Source: a virus (Duplodnaviria; Heunggongvirae; Uroviricota; Caudoviricetes). From it: a DNA stretch of 39,217 nt. Shown here in pieces: positions 4,558 to 36,911 of the stretch. The number at the start of each line of letters is the position of its first letter. Positions within the stretch are counted from its first letter, which is position 1. Below the pieces are notes generated by a model. That model was not told the origin of the DNA. It saw only the letters and a list, made by a program, of their open reading frames with translations, and did no database searches. The stretch is taken from the IMG/VR virus record IMGVR_UViG_2684623171_000001, one strand, 5' to 3'. The translations under genes were made by a program, and so were the position numbers.

Positions 4558-4839
4558 GTGAAAAAAAATCTCATTGCATGGGCGTGGTCGAGTGGTCTTA
4601 TTGAGTTTGGTTACGTCCTGCCGGAAGGTGCATTGCCGATAGTTGCCGGAAAGCCTGCCACGGTACGGCATGTGATTGAGGTTATGGCGCGTCATGGACG
4701 TGATGAACAGGAGCAGTTACTGGTTCCGGGGATACCGGAAGCGGTGACGGAGGAAGAAGCCTTTAATGCCATGATTCGGTTCTGCCGTGAGGTCAGACGC
4801 CGGGTCAGTTATCCAAACAGAACGAGGACCAGAGGGTGA
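4558..4839 (+). CDS. Hypothetical early-region protein
   Basis: 93-aa ORF, start 2 nt after the previous stop; its stop overlaps the next GTG start (GTGA). Confidence 0.4.
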   Translation: MKKNLIAWAWSSGLIEFGYVLPEGALPIVAGKPATVRHVIEVMARHGRDEQEQLLVPGIPEAVTEEEAFNAMIRFCREVRRRVSYPNRTRTRG

Positions 4840-5108
4840 GTAAAGTCGTACGCATTATTTTCGAATACAAGGAGCACGTTATCCATAAAAACGCTGATGG
4901 AACAGTGCGCATGGGGGTAAGTCTGGACATACGTTCAACCGGGATAAAGCAGAAAGGTGATGGACCCGCCATGATTTTTGGGGTGGTTATGCTCGCGGAA
5001 AGCAGAGACTTTGCTGAACTTGTGGCAATGAAAGCCAGTGCGCTCATGAAAGATATGAGCATGCGTTCCGGGGTTATTAAAGGTAATGAATTTAATCAGC
5101 AGGGGTAA
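4836..5108 (+). CDS. Hypothetical small protein, paralog 1 of a tandem pair
   Basis: GTG start; N-terminus MSKVVRIIFEYKEHVIHKN resembles the start of the next ORF. Confidence 0.45.
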   Translation: MSKVVRIIFEYKEHVIHKNADGTVRMGVSLDIRSTGIKQKGDGPAMIFGVVMLAESRDFAELVAMKASALMKDMSMRSGVIKGNEFNQQG

Positions 5109-5112
5109 TTCC

Positions 5113-5406
5113 ATGAGCAAAGTACGCGTTATTTTTGAATTTAAGCATGTTTCGCATGACGAAAAACCGGCAGGCAATGACTGTGTTGAAGTGCATGAAA
5201 AGATTGGTGTGGATGTAAAAACAGAACGTGATACGAATAACAGGCCGACGTCACTCTGTGACGTTTATGCAAGTATTCTCCAGTATCACAGCCCTGAAAT
5301 TATTCAGTTTCTCTCAGCGGAATTTCAGGCATCTGTACAGGCTTTTGGGGCGGATGCCATCATTAAACGCCACCGCGTGCATAAAGCATCAGGCACACTG
5401 CAATAA
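5113..5406 (+). CDS. Hypothetical small protein, paralog 2 of a tandem pair
   Basis: ATG at 5113 with AGGGG RBS; N-terminus MSKVRVIFEFKHVSH similar to the preceding ORF; the track's upstream start at 5086 is less likely. Confidence 0.45.
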   Translation: MSKVRVIFEFKHVSHDEKPAGNDCVEVHEKIGVDVKTERDTNNRPTSLCDVYASILQYHSPEIIQFLSAEFQASVQAFGADAIIKRHRVHKASGTLQ

Positions 5407-5948: not shown

Positions 5949-6045
5949 CACCGCATTAATCAATTAAATATCACTTCGTTTTAATTATGGCGCTCGCGTC
6001 AGGGGACTGCCTGCGCCTGTAAACTGAAAATAAGGAACAGGATAT

Positions 6046-6588
6046 ATGGCATATTTTTATTTCAAATTAGACCGTGTGCAGACAAATAAATATTTCACCA
6101 AATATCAACAGACTGTTTTACCGCTACGCAACAGTATTCTTCGGGCATTACTGAAAAATACAGGCGCTGCCGGATTGCGCTTAAAGCCGTTTGCCATGGA
6201 CGTAATCAGTGAGTTTTATTTTTCTGGTGCTCTGCCTGCGGGCTGGCGTAAGCGCGATGATGTGGCTTTTATCGGGGACGGACCGTGCTTTATTGCCAGA
6301 CCTGATGAGTCATGCCCTGAAGGTCCGGCGATTGCCGCAATGATTGAAACCGCTGAACGTGAGTTAAGAAAGCGTCCTGATTTCCTTGTCTGGCTCTGTG
6401 AAAAGCTGGGGGTAATGAGAATCCCCTCCATGTTTAACACGGACTCCTGGTGGACCCCGTCGCTCTCCCGTGATGCCCTGTGCGTGGTGTTTAAAGTAGG
6501 CGCTTATGGCAGGGAAATAAAAGGGTGTATTCCTGAAGAATGCCAGGAAATTAAACATTCTGAATATGTGGCGCTGACGGAGGAATAA
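6046..6588 (+). CDS. Hypothetical protein, accessory region
   Basis: 180-aa ORF in the gam-gemA variable region; no motif recognised. Confidence 0.45.
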   Translation: MAYFYFKLDRVQTNKYFTKYQQTVLPLRNSILRALLKNTGAAGLRLKPFAMDVISEFYFSGALPAGWRKRDDVAFIGDGPCFIARPDESCPEGPAIAAMIETAERELRKRPDFLVWLCEKLGVMRIPSMFNTDSWWTPSLSRDALCVVFKVGAYGREIKGCIPEECQEIKHSEYVALTEE

Positions 6589-6591
6589 TTC

Positions 6592-7125
6592 ATGATTGAT
6601 GCAAAAGTGCTTGAAGGGGTTAAAAACTGGCTGAGTATTTACGGGCGTCTGACCTGCGGCATTCTGGCTGAAAAAATGAATATGCCGCCATCCTCGATGG
6701 TTTATTTTTTGCGTGATGCGGTCGATGCCGGGGTGCTGACGGAATGTAACGGTTTTTATGATATTCCGCGTCCCCGCCCGGTGCAGCCGGTTCGTCGCAA
6801 ATGCAGCCAGGAAGGTGCGGCTGATGATGTTCAGTGGTGCAGCTTCAGAAAATCCCTGCCGTGGATTGAGGGGCATGATATTCCGTCGATGGCGTGGGAA
6901 TTTGCTCAGGGCGTACTGACCTGCGAAACCGTTTATGTGGTGGTTGAAGTTGATGAGCAGGCCATGAAAGAAGGCGTGCCCCAGTTTGTGATGGCGTATA
7001 TCGACATTCGCCTGGGTGTCATTATCTGCGGTTTAAGCGGCTGGAATATCACCGAACATGTTCTGCGTTACCTGATTGTTGACCGGACGGCTGCACCTGC
7101 CGGGATATCTGCGGAGGTGGCGTAA
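6592..7125 (+). CDS. Hypothetical protein, accessory region
   Basis: 177-aa ORF, start 4 nt after the previous stop. Confidence 0.45.
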   Translation: MIDAKVLEGVKNWLSIYGRLTCGILAEKMNMPPSSMVYFLRDAVDAGVLTECNGFYDIPRPRPVQPVRRKCSQEGAADDVQWCSFRKSLPWIEGHDIPSMAWEFAQGVLTCETVYVVVEVDEQAMKEGVPQFVMAYIDIRLGVIICGLSGWNITEHVLRYLIVDRTAAPAGISAEVA

Positions 7126-7640
7126 TGTTCTTTAAAACATCAAACCCTTCCGCGCTGGCCGCGTGGCAAAAATATCAGCAGGACTGCCAGAAAGTTAAGG
7201 ATGAGGCAAAACGCCTTGAGGCCGTGCTGAATGTTGCGTGCCGGTCGGTATTTGTATCCGGTATCAGTGGCTTTTGTTTTAAAGGGCTGCGCTTTATGGA
7301 TGACAAATATCCTTTTCATCGCGACTTATGGCGAAAACCGACTGCGTCGAATGGCTGGAGCTGCACACCGCGCACATCACGTATTCCCAAAGCCCTGCGC
7401 GTTGCCTCTGACGAACTTAACAGTCTGTGGCGTGAATATTCGCCCGTCACGTATGCCAGAACCGATGCACTGTTGTTCTGGCTGGGTATTGACTTCTCAG
7501 CAATATTGCATGGTCCCGTGAAGTGGTTCTGCGTTGACGATGTTATTTACCTTCAGTGCGAAGATGATTCCGCAAAACGGAAAATGACCGAAATTCTGTC
7601 TGATGAGTTTTATGCTGCCGAAAAGCGAGTCGGGGGGTGA
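7125..7640 (+). CDS. Hypothetical protein, accessory region
   Basis: 171-aa ORF, start overlaps the previous stop. Confidence 0.45.
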   Translation: MFFKTSNPSALAAWQKYQQDCQKVKDEAKRLEAVLNVACRSVFVSGISGFCFKGLRFMDDKYPFHRDLWRKPTASNGWSCTPRTSRIPKALRVASDELNSLWREYSPVTYARTDALLFWLGIDFSAILHGPVKWFCVDDVIYLQCEDDSAKRKMTEILSDEFYAAEKRVGG

Positions 7641-7643
7641 TGC

Positions 7644-8195
7644 ATGATGAAATTACAACCCATGGGGAGAAAAGGCCGTGCACCCGCTCATGTTCGCGCA
7701 TGGACACCTGAAGAAGATGCGCTGCTGATTGCGCTTTATCCATCCACCCCGGTTAAGGATATTGCTGTCAGGATAAAAAGAAGTTTCTGGGGTGTACATA
7801 ACCGGATTGTTTTATTACGCGGTACTTACCCGGAGTTGCTCAAATGCAAACGCCTCAGATTTAAACCTGATGAAGATAAATTTATCCGAAAAAATGCCAG
7901 GACGATGACCGGTAAGCAAATAGGAGAATATCTGGGGCGAGACCGGGATTCTGTCCACAATCGGGCGCGATATATTGGCGTAAGCATGAAAAAATACGGA
8001 GAATTACTGCCTTTTACCCGCATACCTGACGATGATGTTCATCTTATTCGTGAATTACGGGATGCTGAATCACCACGGCGTCTTACCTTTAGGGAAATCG
8101 GCGAGAAATTTGAATTATCCGAGGGCACGGTGAGTTTTATTTATCACCGTCGTCGGACTGCCGAAGATGTTGTATTACGGGAGTTAACGACATGA
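7644..8195 (+). CDS. Hypothetical DNA-binding protein with three tandem HTH-like repeats
   Basis: 183 aa; three ~45-aa repeats of the pattern P-E/D-E/D-D..LI...G....SV.NR; the last resembles a sigma-70 region 4 / LuxR-type HTH; first gene of an AT-richer block. Confidence 0.45.
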   Translation: MMKLQPMGRKGRAPAHVRAWTPEEDALLIALYPSTPVKDIAVRIKRSFWGVHNRIVLLRGTYPELLKCKRLRFKPDEDKFIRKNARTMTGKQIGEYLGRDRDSVHNRARYIGVSMKKYGELLPFTRIPDDDVHLIRELRDAESPRRLTFREIGEKFELSEGTVSFIYHRRRTAEDVVLRELTT

Positions 8196-8377
8196 TAAGG
8201 AGACTTGTTTTTTTCGCAATTATCGTTCCTGTGTGGGGGGTTGGTTTTATATTTGCGGTTACAGGAAATCTGTCCATGATGCCGGATATATGGTTCTTTA
8301 TCAGGATGTCGCTCTTCCTGTTTATTATGAATCTTCTTATCGACATATATATCCGTATTACTGGAAAACATAAATGA
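8192..8377 (+). CDS. Small hydrophobic (membrane) protein
   Basis: 61 aa, almost entirely hydrophobic, AT-rich codons; overlaps the neighbouring stop and start. Confidence 0.35.
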   Translation: MIRRLVFFAIIVPVWGVGFIFAVTGNLSMMPDIWFFIRMSLFLFIMNLLIDIYIRITGKHK

Positions 8378-8748
8378 GAAAAATCACGACCTTGTCAGAG
8401 TTACAGGAGATGAATATGAGTATTGAATTAAGATCGTCTTATGAATATCGTAAAATTCTCATCGCCGGAGGCATGAAACCGGAAGATGCAGAAAAAATCG
8501 TTTCTTTTATGGATAAAGAATGTGACAAACGGGATATGCCAGAAATTATTATGGATGACATGATTCTGGATTCAGCCGTGGCGTTAAGTCCGTTATGGAT
8601 TGTGCATTCTCTTGCTGAAATTGCCAAAGGCACCGATAAACAGGCAGCTGTTGCTGCCCTTCAGACGCTTAATGAAATGCGTATATCTCCACGCCCGACA
8701 TTAATACATATGATTCTGTCCAGCATGGAGGATAAAGCAAATGAATAG
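8374..8748 (+). CDS. Hypothetical protein
   Basis: 124-aa ORF in the AT-rich block; no motif recognised. Confidence 0.4.
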   Translation: MRKITTLSELQEMNMSIELRSSYEYRKILIAGGMKPEDAEKIVSFMDKECDKRDMPEIIMDDMILDSAVALSPLWIVHSLAEIAKGTDKQAAVAALQTLNEMRISPRPTLIHMILSSMEDKANE

Positions 8749-8938
8749 TCTACCCGCTGGATGGGCGCGGCCACTAATGGCCAGGAAGCATCATTTTTTT
8801 AAAACAGGCGAAAATATCAGTATATGTGGACGGTGGTTATATCTGGCTCATAATCGCGAGCCGGATACATTTGAAAGCCCTGATGACTGTGCCGAATGCC
8901 GCAGAAGAGTGAATAAGGAGAAAGATAATGGACAATAG
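8741..8938 (+). CDS. Small cysteine-containing protein, possible zinc ribbon
   Basis: 65 aa with C..C...CxxC spacing (ICGRW....DCAEC). Confidence 0.35.
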   Translation: MNSLPAGWARPLMARKHHFFKTGENISICGRWLYLAHNREPDTFESPDDCAECRRRVNKEKDNGQ

Positions 8939-9224
8939 TTCTCTGTTGTTCTGGTGCTTATATATCACATCCTTTTTCGGCGCATTTGTTATTACCCGGT
9001 GGTTATGTCGAAAAATCATCTGCTTTTTTGATAAAAGACATCCGGTTGAACGGGCGGCTGATGCGCTCATTCAGCAGGCCATTGTGTTATATAGCGGTGA
9101 GTTTTTCTGCCGGATAACAACCAGAGATGGCTGGCACATAATGATTATTCCACCAACACACCATGCCCGGTGGGATGAGGCAGAAAAGGCTTTCCATGTC
9201 CGTAAAAAGGTAAATACGGTATGA
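8928..9224 (+). CDS. Hypothetical protein
   Basis: 98-aa ORF overlapping its neighbours by a few nt. Confidence 0.35.
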   Translation: MDNSSLLFWCLYITSFFGAFVITRWLCRKIICFFDKRHPVERAADALIQQAIVLYSGEFFCRITTRDGWHIMIIPPTHHARWDEAEKAFHVRKKVNTV

Positions 9225-9730
9225 GAGGAAAACTGATATCCGCCATTCATGTGGCAAAGCGCGAGCTTGCCCTGGATGATGAGACTTATACATCCGCGCT
9301 GCTGGCAGCCACCGGCAAAACCAGCTGCCGGGATATGTCACCGGATGAGTTATCCCGCGTGCTGGATGTTTTCAAAAAACGCGGTTTTAAAGTGCGTCAG
9401 AACCCGGTTAACCGGGCCTTAAAACCGGGTACGGTGACCGCCAAAATTCGCGCCATCTGGAAGGTGATGCACCGGCAGGGCTTTATCACCGATGGTGCGG
9501 AAACCGCCCTTAACCGCTGGGTGAAATCGCAGACGGCCGCGCAGAACGGCGGCGAAGGTGTGGCAAACTGGCAGTGGCTGGAGCAACACCCCGCCCTGGC
9601 CTCAGATGTGCTGGAGCGTCTCAAGCGATGGCACCGCCGCAAAATGCTGGCCGCGATGGGAATGCCCGAACGCACGCTGATGGGGTATGACGCCGTTTGC
9701 AGGCAGTATGAAAAATCACTTCCCCGTTAA
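9221..9730 (+). CDS. gemA: GemA-like (Mu gp16 family) protein
   Basis: 169 aa, last gene before the early terminator; position matches Mu gemA; family call from memory only. Confidence 0.55.
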   Translation: MRGKLISAIHVAKRELALDDETYTSALLAATGKTSCRDMSPDELSRVLDVFKKRGFKVRQNPVNRALKPGTVTAKIRAIWKVMHRQGFITDGAETALNRWVKSQTAAQNGGEGVANWQWLEQHPALASDVLERLKRWHRRKMLAAMGMPERTLMGYDAVCRQYEKSLPR

Positions 9731-9734
9731 CCCC

Positions 9735-9766
9735 AAATCCCGCCACAACGCGGGATTTTTATTTTA
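9735..9766 (+). terminator. Rho-independent terminator at the end of the early operon
   Basis: Perfect 9-bp stem AAATCCCGC / GCGGGATTT with a 6-nt loop, followed by TTATTTTAA. Confidence 0.65.
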
Positions 9767-9799
9767 AACTTACCGGGAACGCGAGAACCGGAGGCTGAT

Positions 9800-10225
9800 A
9801 TGGCAGAAACTCAGATGAGCATGTTTGGTGGTGACAGTGAGCAACTGCACGCCCTTATCGACCGCCTTGATGACATCCCTGATGATGTTCTCAAAAAGAA
9901 CTGGCCGCGGACCCTGTCAGAACTGGTTGAAGTCACCGGCGCAGAACTTCAGCGTCAGGGGATTGAGCCGGTACTGGCCGGTAAACTGGCACGCAAGGTG
10001 GCTGCGGCTCAGGCAGCCTATATGGGCGGACGGGGTTATTACCTGCCGGTCGGGGAATCTCTCTTTGCCGAGCTGCGAAACAATGAGATATTTTCGCGCT
10101 GGGACCGGGGCGAGAAAATTGAATCCCTTCGCCGCCATTACCGGATGTCAGAAACCCAGATTTATACCGTCATACGCGAACAGCGCCGTCTGCATCTGGC
10201 AAGAACGCAACCGCCACTTTTCTGA
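9800..10225 (+). CDS. Mor/C-family transcriptional activator
   Basis: 141 aa; C-terminal region GGRGYYLPVGESLFAELRNNEIFSRWDRGEKIESLRRHYRMSETQIYTVIREQRR fits the Mor/C pattern as I recall it; GGAGG RBS. Confidence 0.7.
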   Translation: MAETQMSMFGGDSEQLHALIDRLDDIPDDVLKKNWPRTLSELVEVTGAELQRQGIEPVLAGKLARKVAAAQAAYMGGRGYYLPVGESLFAELRNNEIFSRWDRGEKIESLRRHYRMSETQIYTVIREQRRLHLARTQPPLF

Positions 10226-10296
10226 TATTCCGCAAAGCCTGCCGCCTCTCCTTCACCGTTACGCTGACTCAGAGAACATCATGAGACAGCGTAACA

Positions 10297-10797
10297 ATGC
10301 CAAAACTCCCCGCACCACTGCGTAAAAAGCTGATTGCCCTTGTTCTGGCCGGTGCCGGGACGTTCACGATTGCCACGCATTACACCGGTTACTGGGAAGG
10401 GAAAGAAAACTCCACGTATATCGATCCCACCGGTACACCCACCATCTGTTACGGCCATACCGGCCCGGATGTGAAACCGGGTATGACCCTGACAGATGAA
10501 GAATGCCTGGAACTACTGGAAAAGGACATGAAATGGGCCTTTGCGGCCATTGATCGGCGTGTTCAGGTGCCGCTTACCCGTGGTCAGACGGTGGCGCTGG
10601 CTTCGTGGATCTTCTGGGCCGGTGAAACGAACTTTCGCAACTCCACGCTTCTGCGCCTGATCAATGCCGGGCAGATGCCCGCGTCCTGTAAGCAGTATAT
10701 CCGCTGGATTTATTCAAAGGGGGTGAAACTCCCCGGCCTTGAGGCCCGCCGTTCGGCGGATGAATGGTTATGTCGCTACGACTTGCCGAAAGTCTGA
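10297..10797 (+). CDS. lys: Endolysin, T4-type lysozyme family, with an N-terminal signal-anchor-release (SAR) domain
   Basis: Catalytic spacing E-x8-D-x5-T (EGKENSTYIDPTGTPT); N-terminal RKK followed by the Gly/Ala-rich weakly hydrophobic LIALVLAGAGTFTIATHY. Confidence 0.75.
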   Translation: MPKLPAPLRKKLIALVLAGAGTFTIATHYTGYWEGKENSTYIDPTGTPTICYGHTGPDVKPGMTLTDEECLELLEKDMKWAFAAIDRRVQVPLTRGQTVALASWIFWAGETNFRNSTLLRLINAGQMPASCKQYIRWIYSKGVKLPGLEARRSADEWLCRYDLPKV

Positions 10798-34120: not shown

Positions 34121-34219
34121 GACGCTCTCTTTGTTGGGCCTTTACTGAATTAACGCAAAATGGCGTTTATCGGTCTGTGGATATGATAATTCAGTTTATT
34201 CAGGAACAGGCTGATTATT

Positions 34220-36259
34220 ATGACGTCCAAATGGGTTCAACTATCATCAATGCCCGGAAACTTTACTGTTAAAGTTTCCGGTGGTACAGCGGCATTTCTT
34301 GAGGCTCCCTTTCCTCCGGCCGAAACAAAAGGAGGAATGACATTTGCTGACTGTCTCATCAGTTTTAATACACGGGATTGCCTGTGGGTAAGGCCAGTAT
34401 CCGGTGATCCGAGTGTGGAAATTACCGGAGCGGGTATTGGTGCGGTCATTCCGTTAAGTGCTGATGTTGCCGGTACTGCTGAACCGTCAGACTGGGATAA
34501 TGCTGAAACACATACCCGTCCGTCAGGAAATGAAACTGCTTCCAGCTCCCCTTCCTGGTATTACGTGGTGGTTCTTGCTGGTCAGTCAAACGGTATGGCT
34601 TACGGTGAAGGTCTGCCACTGCCGGAGACATATGACCGCCCCGAACCGCGTATTATGCAGTTAGCCCGTCGCAGTACAGTCACGCCGGGAGGTAAAGCCT
34701 GTCAGTATAACGACATCATTCTGGCCGACCACTGTCTGCATGATGTGCAGGATATGAGTGGAAAAAATCACCCGAAAGCGGATGTGGCTAAAGGGCAATA
34801 TGGCACCGTGGGTCAGGGGCTTCACATTGCCAAAAAACTGCTGCCGTTTATTCCGGCAGATGCGGGGATTCTGCTGGTTCCCTGCTGCCGTGGTGGTTCT
34901 GCATTCACGGCGGGTGCTGACGGCACGTACAGTGACAGCACGGGTGCTTCAGAGGACTCAGCCCGCTGGGGTGTGGATAAGCCGCTGTATAAGGACTTAA
35001 TCAGCCGGACAAAAGCGGCACTGGCGAAGAACCCGAAAAACCGCCTGCTTGCTGTGGTGTGGATGCAGGGCGAGTTTGATATTGATGCGAAGCCGACGGA
35101 GCATTCCGCGCTGTTTCTGGCGATGGTGGAAAAATTCCGCGCAGACCTGGCTGAACAGGCGGAACAGTGTACCGGTGGCAGTGCTGCTGGCGTTCCGTGG
35201 ATTTGTGGCGATACCACGTATTTCTGGAAACAGAAAAATGAACCGGCATACCAGGCAATCTATGGCGGCTACAAAAACAAAACAGATAAAAACATTCATT
35301 TCGTTCCATTAATGACAGATGAAAATGACGCGAATGTACCCACCAACAATCCGGCAGAAGACCCGGATATTGAATCCATTGGTTATTACGGCTCAACGTG
35401 GCGTAACAGTGCCGCCACCTGGACATCTGCGGACCGGGCCAGCCATTTCAGTTCATGGGCACGTCGTGGGATTATTTCCGACCGTCTGGCCACGGCAGTT
35501 CTGACTCATGCGGGGCGAACCACAGTAAAAGCCGATGTTCCATCTTCTGAAACTGAAGCACCAGTGCCGTCACCTTCAGAAACTGAAGCAGTAACCACAA
35601 CACTGCTGTCTTATCGTGTCAGTGAGTCAGAAGGAAATCTGAAAGCCCAGGGCTGGGAGCCGGCTGGCGGTAAAGCTGAAATTATCAGTGATGCAGGAGG
35701 CACAGGTGGTAAGGCAATGAAACTGACCAAGGAAACAGGTAAATCATCCTGGTATCTGGATCATGATGCCGGTACTGGTGCTGAACTGCTGAAAAATGGT
35801 GGTTTAATCAGTTGTCGTTTTAAAGTACCTGGCGACCTGGTGGCAAACCAGTATGTCATGGGGCTTTACTGGCCGGTTTCCTCTCTGCCGCAGGGTGTCA
35901 CCCTGACAGGGGATGCAGGGAATAATCTGCTGGCATCGTTCTACATCCAGACAGACGCAAAAGACCTGAATGTGATGTACCACAATGCAAAAGTGGCAAC
36001 AAATAACCAGAAACTGGGAACCTTTGGTGCATTTGATAATGAATGGCATACGCTGGCCTTCCGTTTTGCAGGAAATAACAGCCTTCAGGTTATTCCGGTT
36101 ATTGATGGTCAGGATGGTGCCGCGTTTACCCTGACGCAGTCACCAGTAGGAACTTTCCCGGTGGACAAACTCCGCGTAACGGATATCACAAAAAATGCAA
36201 CTTACCCGGTGCTGATTGACAGCATTGTGGTGGAAGTGAAAAAAGCGGTAACAGAATAA
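34220..36259 (+). CDS. SASA/SGNH-type sialate O-acetylesterase-like protein with unknown N-terminal domain and lectin-like C-terminal domain (NanS-p-like prophage esterase)
   Basis: 679 aa; GQSN catalytic motif (VVLAGQSNGMAYGEG) and downstream WMQGEFD; duplicated SETEA linker (PSSETEAPVPSPSETEAV); C-terminal ~220 aa have beta-rich, lectin-like composition; has no counterpart in Mu between gin and mom. Confidence 0.65.
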   Translation: MTSKWVQLSSMPGNFTVKVSGGTAAFLEAPFPPAETKGGMTFADCLISFNTRDCLWVRPVSGDPSVEITGAGIGAVIPLSADVAGTAEPSDWDNAETHTRPSGNETASSSPSWYYVVVLAGQSNGMAYGEGLPLPETYDRPEPRIMQLARRSTVTPGGKACQYNDIILADHCLHDVQDMSGKNHPKADVAKGQYGTVGQGLHIAKKLLPFIPADAGILLVPCCRGGSAFTAGADGTYSDSTGASEDSARWGVDKPLYKDLISRTKAALAKNPKNRLLAVVWMQGEFDIDAKPTEHSALFLAMVEKFRADLAEQAEQCTGGSAAGVPWICGDTTYFWKQKNEPAYQAIYGGYKNKTDKNIHFVPLMTDENDANVPTNNPAEDPDIESIGYYGSTWRNSAATWTSADRASHFSSWARRGIISDRLATAVLTHAGRTTVKADVPSSETEAPVPSPSETEAVTTTLLSYRVSESEGNLKAQGWEPAGGKAEIISDAGGTGGKAMKLTKETGKSSWYLDHDAGTGAELLKNGGLISCRFKVPGDLVANQYVMGLYWPVSSLPQGVTLTGDAGNNLLASFYIQTDAKDLNVMYHNAKVATNNQKLGTFGAFDNEWHTLAFRFAGNNSLQVIPVIDGQDGAAFTLTQSPVGTFPVDKLRVTDITKNATYPVLIDSIVVEVKKAVTE

Positions 36260-36405
36260 AAAAATCCCGCCGGTCATGATATGGCTGGCGGGAGCTACCT
36301 AACCCATAAAGGAAAATAAAAATACTCCCGAAGGAGTGGTTATCAGTCGCTTCGATGTTTTTACCCGATAACGAATTATGTAGTCAATATCAAAGGTAAG
36401 GTTAT

Positions 36406-36588
36406 ATGACATTCGTTCATACAATGCTGCTTTATTTCTGCGCTGTGGTCAGTGCGTTATATCTGGTGAGCGGTGGTTATAAGGTCATCAGAAATTATAT
36501 TCGCCGTAAAATTGATGATGCGGCAGCTGAAAAACTCAGTAAAACAGCACAGGCACCGTCATCCCCAAACGACCCGACCCCGCTCTGA
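36406..36588 (+). CDS. Small membrane protein
   Basis: 60 aa; N-terminal TM helix (MLLYFCAVVSALYLVSGG); AAGGTAAGG RBS. Confidence 0.35.
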   Translation: MTFVHTMLLYFCAVVSALYLVSGGYKVIRNYIRRKIDDAAAEKLSKTAQAPSSPNDPTPL

Positions 36589-36623
36589 TAACGGGGCAAT
36601 ATACCTGCAAAAGGAGAATATTC

Positions 36624-36869
36624 ATGCCAGAGATTAAAGGCACGGTTACTGAAGAGCTTGTCAAACAGGCACTTTATTCTGAAGAAGTGAACCGCGTGCT
36701 GAAGGCGCAGGTTCGCAAGGATTTTGAGGCACAAATCGACGCATATGTTGATGAAGTGCTGGCCCGAATGGTTGGCCGTTCTCCGGCTGAAAACAGCACG
36801 GAAAATGATCCTCAACCCGTAGAGCAACCAGAGCCGGTTCAGCCCGGAACTGACGGTACTATGATGTAA
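36624..36869 (+). CDS. Small acidic hypothetical protein
   Basis: 81 aa; strong AAGGAG RBS; followed by a hairpin terminator. Confidence 0.4.
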   Translation: MPEIKGTVTEELVKQALYSEEVNRVLKAQVRKDFEAQIDAYVDEVLARMVGRSPAENSTENDPQPVEQPEPVQPGTDGTMM

Positions 36870-36879
36870 CAATACCGAC

Positions 36880-36911
36880 CGGCAGGTTTCCCTGCCGGGT
36901 GAGTTTGTTAA
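36880..36911 (+). terminator. Hairpin terminator after the two small genes
   Basis: 8-bp stem CCGGCAGG / CCTGCCGG with a 4-nt loop, followed by GTGAGTTTGTT. Confidence 0.4.

Follow-up and report, generated by a model that had tools for sequence, protein, structure and literature searches.

Positions 7644-9224 of the stretch of viral DNA analysed here (39,217 nucleotides; IMG/VR record IMGVR_UViG_2684623171_000001; hereafter the window) hold a block of five small genes between homologues of the gp12 and gemA genes of phage Mu. The window is prophage Sp18 of Escherichia coli O157:H7 Sakai: its positions 7000-9800 are 100% identical to many chromosomes of enterohaemorrhagic and Shiga toxin-producing E. 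coli (EHEC and STEC), including that of Sakai, where the matching region is annotated as 'prophage Sp18, Mu-like phage'. Sp18-related sequence is present in 232 of 5426 complete E. coli genomes (~4%), mainly EHEC/STEC. The prophage has been predicted to be apparently intact and, like Mu, is neither inducible by mitomycin nor circularising (PMC2669165); its loss from a mutant strain was seen in one study (PMC13502914). The early genes are all on the plus strand, in the order gam, ECs_4953, gp11, gp12, block, gemA and Mor/C, and the block thus lies on the early strand between gam and gemA/mor, as do the semi-essential early accessory genes of the Mu family. We think it likely that the block forms the distal, variable portion of the 'semi-essential' early operon of a transposable prophage of the Mu family and that the gp12-gemA interval is a recombination hotspot at which single small genes are exchanged.

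An uninterrupted chain of plus-strand open reading frames (ORFs) covers positions 7644-9224 and comprises five genes (Table 1). RefSeq also has five coding sequences there, ECs_4956, ECs_5772, ECs_4957, ECs_4958 and ECs_4959, all called 'hypothetical', and not the six announced in an initial annotation of this DNA. A sixth ORF was sought on either strand of the block and none with family support was found; the minus-strand ORFs have no family matches. The genes had also been described as tightly overlapping, which holds for overlaps of 4, 8, 11 and 4 base pairs (bp) along the chain and fails at one place, as a 39-nucleotide (nt) gap separates the genes for the proteins of 61 and 110 amino acids (aa) if ECs_4957 starts at 8416. 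This start is best placed there rather than at 8374 because an AGGAG ribosome-binding site stands 7 nt upstream of 8416 and none precedes 8374, because the PHROG match of the protein opens at residue 15 of the longer, 124-aa form, and because in the related phage L003 homology to the ECs_4957 region begins only at window position 8403, with unrelated DNA before it. L003 (LC727881) and L004 (LC727895), used as variants throughout, come from two records of ~93 kb labelled 'Stx-converting phage' (Stx, Shiga toxin), each of which holds an inserted complete Sp18-like Mu-type phage.

Table 1. Coordinates in the window of the block genes, their two anchors and the downstream hairpin
Feature	Position	Strand	Characteristics
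ECs_4955, gp12 homologue, 171 aa, left anchor	7125..7640	+	53% identity to Mu gp12, E=2e-63; phrog_2314
ECs_4956, 183 aa, isoelectric point (pI) 10.1	7644..8195	+	phrog_323, E=1e-58; Mu gp9 match; dN/dS 0.16-0.25
ECs_5772, 61 aa	8192..8377	+	hydrophobic stretches at residues 1-28 and 32-58; grand average of hydropathy (GRAVY) 1.23; dN/dS 0.13 against L003
ECs_4957, 110 aa (longest ORF from 8374, 124 aa), acidic, pI 4.9, all-helical	8416..8748	+	
ECs_4958, 65 aa, hydrophilic	8741..8938	+	conserved H17/H18, C29, C50-x-x-C53; phrog_2358
ECs_4959, 98 aa	8928..9224	+	hydrophobic residues 4-24; dN/dS 0.14-0.16; phrog_17269
ECs_4960, GemA homologue, right anchor	9221..9730	+	Pfam GemA, E=3e-30; 44% identity to Mu GemA
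First strong intrinsic-terminator-like hairpin downstream of the block	9735..9758	+	9-bp stem, 5 GC pairs, T-run

The five block genes are real, coding and under purifying selection. Each has its own ribosome-binding site with a Shine-Dalgarno motif, all five products match PHROG families, and all five genes are present on hundreds to thousands of contigs. Ratios of non-synonymous to synonymous substitution rates (dN/dS), taken against natural alleles and homologues, including pairs 47-50% identical in amino acids, are 0.06-0.28, compared with 0.16-0.19 for the flanking gp12 and gemA genes. A search of positions 7000-10300 on both strands against Rfam gave no match, and a literature search for the locus tags returned nothing on these five genes.

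The drop in composition pointed out in the initial annotation is borne out. The GC content of the block is 43.3% for a window mean of 53.4%, which makes it the lowest 1.58-kb stretch of the window; only 0.27% of equal-length windows have a GC content as low, and nearly all of these overlap the block itself. Codons ending in A or T make up 59.6% of the block genes versus 41.8% of the flanking genes (chi-square p = 7e-11). Overall, AT content is slightly higher in the early than in the late region, and the block thus marks the far end of a trend and does not stand out as a separate island.

To describe the slot between the two anchors more broadly, 67 IMG/VR loci and one Citrobacter genome were collected via gp12, and the slot was scored in the 64 loci that have both anchors. 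They display at least 18 slot architectures drawn from about 12 single-gene cassette families, a number that is a lower bound as some Mu-type slots hold DNA outside all reference cassettes. Slot length ranges from 274 to 2457 bp, and in every one of the 64 loci the GC content of the slot (0.425-0.524) is below that of the flanks (0.51-0.55). The Sakai five-gene arrangement is the most frequent, at 13 loci in this redundant sample. In L003, the 39-nt gap that follows the 61-aa gene is occupied by an insert of ~890 bp with three genes. In L004, ECs_4956 is kept and the rest of the block up to gemA is replaced by a 110-aa gene and homologues of Mu gp13, gp14 and gp15. Both differ from Sakai at gene boundaries, and five further E. 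coli variants carry yet other gene sets in the slot. The alternative cassettes, among them those of phrog_6925, phrog_6158 and DUF2513, are likewise of uncharacterised function.

The edges of the exchanged DNA can be placed. On the left, different cassettes all begin at the ATGA that overlaps the stop codon of ECs_4956. On the right, the first ~15 codons of gemA occur in two forms, MRGKLISAIHVAKRE and MNRASLITLIHVAKRD, which co-vary with the upstream cassette (positions 9221-9265 of the window, 4741-4785 of L004 and 2829-2870 of locus L010); the right recombination junction therefore lies inside gemA. A GC-rich hairpin is found ahead of gemA if its upstream neighbour is a minus-strand gene (gp15-like or DUF2513).

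Taken as a comparison of sequences, these data give good support to an accessory-gene hotspot with horizontal exchange of single-gene cassettes, and the proposal of a hotspot between gam and gemA is upheld, with Mu gp13-gp15 in the same slot. They also show the block genes assorting as independent cassettes and not as the 'module' that had been put forward. In a distinct Mu-like prophage of Salmonella, the 65-aa gene stands by itself immediately upstream of gemA, and it is also found among the early genes of a non-Mu Citrobacter element with Cro, a Q-like protein, HicAB and a methylase. This solo occurrence and the many combinations argue against a functional module of five genes. The existence of natural relatives that lack four of the five genes suggests that those four may be dispensable for phage growth.

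Two known arrangements provide useful comparisons. The gp13-gp14-gp15 segment of Mu is located between the same anchors in the same early operon and is also made up of small, uncharacterised genes (PMC3820752), and in some Sp18-type prophages its homologues replace four of the five Sakai genes. However, the Mu segment consists of gp13, gp14 and a minus-strand gp15, whereas the block is roughly double that length, with all its genes on the plus strand. No similarity between the Sakai cassettes and Mu gp13, gp14 or gp15 was detected by BLAST or profile-profile comparison, and the possibility that block ORFs are diverged versions of gp13 or gp14 was rejected (profile-profile probability 0.2%). 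The second comparison is with phage morons and accessory hotspots, as found in lambdoid phages and in Pseudomonas Mu-like phages with morons such as Tab (PMC10884400). Like them, the block consists of extra genes absent from close relatives, located between genes that are adjacent in those relatives, and deviant in composition; many morons are also small orphans, and some play a part in phage-host conflict. Classical morons, however, bring a promoter and a terminator of their own for expression from the prophage, whereas the block cassettes showed neither in a consensus scan and stand in line in the early lytic operon.

All 38 Sp18-type loci carry ECs_4956, but only 2 of the 26 Mu-type loci do. 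Three helix-turn-helix (HTH)-like repeats had been attributed to it, and the protein contains three repeats of ~50 aa, with z = 4.1 for repeat 1 versus repeat 2 and z = 2.3 for repeat 2 versus repeat 3, while likeness between repeats 1 and 3 is not detectable by sequence. Each of them opens with Trp/Phe-x-x-Glu/Asp-Asp and keeps the HTH register. A family profile, which comprised Sp18 variants and proteins of a P2-like Citrobacter phage, Vibrio phages, phage D6, Mu (gp9) and a mycobacteriophage, matched PDB entry 2lvs (E=8e-7), the HTH of Mos1 transposase (1e-4) and c-Myb R2R3 (1h88; 5e-4), the last over profile positions 18-104. These tandem Myb/SANT and homeodomain-like HTH proteins are matched over one or two repeats, whereas ECs_4956 has three. 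With the single sequence, Pfam Myb_DNA-binding scored 16.6 bits for a cut-off of 24.4 and an HTH_AsnC-type domain 20.1 bits for a cut-off of 27. Pfam gave no match to the AsnC_trans_reg (RAM) ligand-binding domain; with the HTH_AsnC score below threshold as well, the NCBI name 'AsnC family protein' is a misnomer.

Of the known proteins of Mu, ECs_4956 resembles gp9 (E8), which its residues 66-166 match with 32% identity (BLASTP E=1e-8). Repeats 2 and 3 align to the two HTH repeats of gp9, and both proteins belong to phrog_323. Nevertheless, gp9 is a 99-aa, two-repeat protein encoded upstream of gam, whereas ECs_4956, with its extra N-terminal Myb-like repeat, is encoded downstream of gp12, and an unrelated gene takes the position of gp9 in Sp18. 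ECs_4956 therefore does not have the architecture and position of gp9 (~100 aa, two repeats, upstream of gam). The statement that no block ORF resembles a Mu gene thus needs qualification: it applies to gp13-gp15, but ECs_4956 matches gp9, and ECs_4957 has a relative in Mu-type phages. The phrog_323 label 'transcriptional regulator, D5-like' is unconfirmed, phage T5 not being among the tblastn matches.

P2-like, P1-like, Vibrio and Mu phages carry full-length and two-repeat relatives of ECs_4956 as early genes that stand on their own. In gp103 of Mycobacterium phage Thibault, an N-terminus homologous to repeats 1-2 is fused to an HNH nuclease; the presence of the same module in this fusion indicates that it is a portable DNA-binding unit. 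In the Thibault sequence (locus L014, 1000-3130), the gp103 gene lies between the DNA methylase fragments gp102 and gp105, after which comes a second HNH gene, gp106; the gp103 gene looks like a homing-endonuclease insertion that splits a methylase gene. We predict that ECs_4956 is a DNA-binding protein with three Myb/homeodomain-like HTH units, related to Mu gp9. Fixed in the Sp18 lineage, it is most likely an early DNA-binding or regulatory factor rather than swappable cargo.

The products of the four other genes are small. ECs_5772, described as a hydrophobic peptide, indeed has two hydrophobic helices and is predicted from hydropathy to be a two-helix hairpin peptide of the inner membrane. 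It has a weak phrog_19804 match and is the rarest cassette, found in 14 of the 64 loci and confined to Sakai-type arrangements. ECs_4957, predicted to be an acidic, helical cytoplasmic protein, belongs to a narrow orphan family with only ten representatives at E<1e-3 among 1.84 billion sequences. The family is found in both the Sp18-type and the Mu-type lineages (43 loci), and a 49%-identical relative is located between gp13 and gp14 in Mu-type phages.

ECs_4958 had been called Cys-rich, which overstates its three Cys residues; all three are conserved, though, together with two His. Its alignment spans Salmonella, Citrobacter, Buttiauxella, Scandinavium and Trabulsiella, with the family pattern AGWARP...HH.F...SICG.W...REPDTFESPDDCxxCR, and H17/H18, C29 and C50-x-x-C53 are kept in all nine non-frameshifted homologues. 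This conserved pattern suggests a His/Cys zinc site, and ECs_4958 is probably a small protein of zinc-binding type. Its AlphaFold2 model, of low confidence (predicted local distance difference test, pLDDT, 62.5), has beta-hairpins and a helix that opens at the CxxC, and gave no Foldseek match with E<1. There is no Pfam zinc-ribbon match either, and a supposed likeness to Pfam DUF3039 was dropped, as no Pfam match bears it out. Frameshifted versions of the gene in some genomes (P0101-P0103) keep the first ~22 residues and then diverge, with loss of the Cys residues, which suggests occasional decay of this cassette.

ECs_4959, whose stop codon overlaps the gemA start, is predicted from hydropathy to be a membrane-anchored protein with one transmembrane helix and a diversifying soluble domain. 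A conserved N-terminal anchor is followed by basic residues and then by a variable domain of ~65 aa, and two alleles ~50% identical exist (the alleles in loci L008/L011). Loci with the 98-aa gene may have or lack the 65-aa gene.

As for expression, no promoter- or terminator-like sites above shuffle expectation were found inside the block in a consensus scan, and none flank single genes. The early transcript on which the block is carried likely ends at the hairpin at 9735-9758. The overlaps between genes, the lack of internal sites and the terminator after gemA together indicate in-line expression from the early promoter. Lysogens of Mu express the early transcript weakly, and the roles of the 'semi-essential' genes on it are for the most part unknown (PMC3820752). 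In the explanation that we favour, with the block as the variable distal part of the Sp18 early operon, small genes would be exchanged in line between related and unrelated temperate phages. From their arrangement and the consensus scan, the five genes would be co-transcribed from the early promoter, several of them with translational coupling. Their products would appear early in the lytic cycle and perhaps also, at a basal level, in lysogens, as has been reported for the early promoter of Mu, Pe. ECs_5772, ECs_4957, ECs_4958 and ECs_4959 might be dispensable modulators of host physiology or of phage-host or phage-phage conflict, and each of the four products would act alone by binding a host or phage component.

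Several points weigh against this explanation. The sample of loci is redundant, with many near-identical E. coli prophages, and the architecture counts should not be read as frequencies. Wherever the 65-aa gene is present in the sampled Sp18-type loci, the 98-aa gene comes next (20 of 20), the only recurrent pairing; the two may form a functional pair in the Sp18 lineage, although linkage by descent accounts for the observation equally well. The absence of fold matches is weak evidence, given the low confidence of the models. Finally, no homology gives a function to any of the five products, and both co-transcription and timing are inferred from gene arrangement and the consensus scan.

Among the other explanations, the one that fares best, while still rather improbable in our estimation, is that at least one cassette encodes a new anti-defence, anti-restriction or superinfection-exclusion factor that binds and blocks a host defence protein or the entry machinery of an incoming phage. 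The most plausible candidates would be ECs_5772 and ECs_4959, both predicted membrane proteins, or the acidic ECs_4957. The rapid turnover of cassettes and the low GC of the slot fit this idea, as do the two small proteins predicted to reside in the inner membrane, with two transmembrane helices in ECs_5772 and one in ECs_4959. Small membrane proteins are common among the known exclusion proteins, and superinfection-exclusion proteins of this type are expected at the inner membrane. The ~50%-identical alleles of ECs_4959, with their conserved anchor and variable domain, and the small, acidic and helical character of ECs_4957 are also in line with it, as is orphan status. However, dN/dS values are ordinary, with no sign of positive selection at the whole-gene level, the consensus scan gave no internal promoter for lysogenic expression, and the alternative cassettes are as uncharacterised as those of Sakai, which leaves the slot without a proven link to defence.

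The homology searches did not favour such a factor either. In PADLOC-DB 2.0, four of the proteins have no match and ECs_4956 gave only noise (E=0.02-0.03). For all five proteins, NCBIfam and Pfam returned nothing beyond sub-threshold HTH matches, and Pfam searches across family members gave no consistent weak signal. Profiles of ECs_4957, ECs_4958 and ECs_4959 have no significant match to PDB sequences, and fold searches with two low-confidence models (pLDDT 68 and 62.5) found no matches. Sequence or fold likeness to characterised anti-defence inhibitors was not seen in Pfam, NCBIfam or PDB, which are general libraries, none of them dedicated to anti-defence. No similarity to defence-related or other characterised families thus emerged, and the anti-defence or exclusion role proposed in the initial annotation rests only on location and turnover. 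A literature search for anti-defence genes in the Mu early region yielded nothing on the block genes. The region had been presented as the classical home of anti-restriction genes in Mu-like phages, which is inaccurate: the anti-restriction gene of Mu is mom, and the recognisable anti-restriction function of Sp18 is com/mom, away from the block at the right end of the prophage (com homologue at 37486-37686, mom homologue at 37640-38377; Pfam Mom E=4e-77).

A broader form of the same idea strikes us as slightly less probable still. The whole slot would be an uncatalogued 'gene cassette library' for counter-defence or host takeover, with at least 12 orphan families, and at least one Sakai cassette would found a new inhibitor family. 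The best candidates would then be ECs_4959, possibly with the ECs_4958 that precedes it in Sp18-type phages, and ECs_4957. If any cassette is an anti-defence, exclusion or host-takeover factor, a new family would be added, and the gp12-gemA slot would be a compact, recognisable place to mine such genes in transposable phages. For now, the result is mainly a clean description, with a short list of candidates, a well-delimited slot, and corrections to the gene count, the ECs_4957 start and the misleading 'AsnC family' name.

We regard it as unlikely that ECs_4956 derives from a homing endonuclease or another selfish element, as a remnant or as its free-standing DNA-binding module, with its left-edge position resulting from past endonuclease-driven recombination. 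It would account for the match of repeats 1-2 to the N-terminus of the methylase-splitting Thibault gp103, for the weak PADLOC match to a 'homing endonuclease' (E=0.027) and the weak HNH match of phrog_1891, and for the fact that all variant junctions start exactly at the ECs_4956 stop codon. However, ECs_4956 has no nuclease domain, it is under purifying selection and keeps its position in all 38 Sp18-type loci, and its relatives in P2-like, P1-like, Vibrio and Mu phages are free-standing early genes.

Even less credible is a single co-functional anti-defence or exclusion module made of all five genes. Tight packing with overlaps, the recurrence of the full five-gene set in 13 of 64 loci and the co-occurrence of the 65-aa and 98-aa genes in Sp18-type loci would be expected of a module. 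Nevertheless, the genes are found singly and in many other combinations, insertions occur between them, and the full set recurs among near-identical prophages.

We also considered mimicry by ECs_4957 of the central dimerisation site of H-NS, by which it would antagonise H-NS silencing of AT-rich prophage DNA, and hold it to be very improbable. Residues 6-24 of ECs_4957 share 8 of 19 positions with H-NS residues 56-74 (pairwise E=0.002), a profile that included the protein P0115 touched the H-NS structure 3nr7 (E=0.07), and P0115 matched Pfam Histone_HNS_N (E=0.002). However, the signal disappeared from the ECs_4957 profile once this doubtful member was removed, the H-NS-like motif is poorly kept in true family members, which have lost the Pro and the Tyr-Arg, and the pairwise match is not significant after correction for database size. 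The mimicry was rejected as unsupported, as the signal came from P0115. The latter is a 211-aa protein with a signal-peptide-like N-terminus and three copies of EYRKxLIxDGLxPxDxDRI, which resembles the central dimerisation helix-turn-helix of H-NS; this secreted repeat protein is probably unrelated to the ECs_4957 family. Last, the idea that the ORFs are chance frames in an AT-rich non-coding spacer, to which their small size, low GC and lack of functional annotation might lend colour, is refuted by the pattern of conservation, with PHROG matches for all five, low dN/dS even at 47-50% identity, ribosome-binding sites and homologues in other genera.

The genes around the block show further departures from Mu. 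ECs_4952 is Gam (57% identity to Mu Gam) and ECs_4954 the gp11 homologue (67%), while Pfam Phage_Mu_Gp12 is matched by identical neighbours of ECs_4955. The gam-gp11 interval, only ~100 bp long in Mu, holds ECs_4953 in Sp18 (6046-6588, 180 aa, phrog_2260); in L004, this gene is swapped for unrelated sequence (window positions 6019-6546 are unmatched), and its position is a second variable slot of the early operon. Upstream of gam, ECs_4950 and ECs_4951 (4836-5406) are adjoining genes for proteins of ~90 aa with a similar N-terminus (9 of 13 residues identical, E=0.002), which may be diverged tandem paralogues; neither resembles gp9, the occupant of that position in Mu. Downstream of gemA, the terminator-like hairpin precedes ECs_4961, a single gene for a Mor/C-family activator (9800-10225) that is nearer Mu C (39% identity) than Mu Mor (27%). 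Mu gp18-gp20 and a second activator are missing from Sp18, whose middle/late regulatory cascade therefore probably differs from that of Mu.

At the right end of Sp18, positions 36907-38377 are the only other stretch of the window as AT-rich as the block. They hold com, mom and ECs_4996, a minus-strand gene for a hypothetical protein of 154 aa that has no match in Pfam or PADLOC. Three extra genes, without PADLOC matches, lie at 34219-36868 between a gin-like DNA invertase gene and com/mom. One encodes a 679-aa protein with a SASA sialate O-acetylesterase domain and DUF6645 (NanS-p-like), and the two others are DUF1378 and DUF826 genes. This cargo is typical of lambdoid Stx phages and is found here in a Mu-like prophage.

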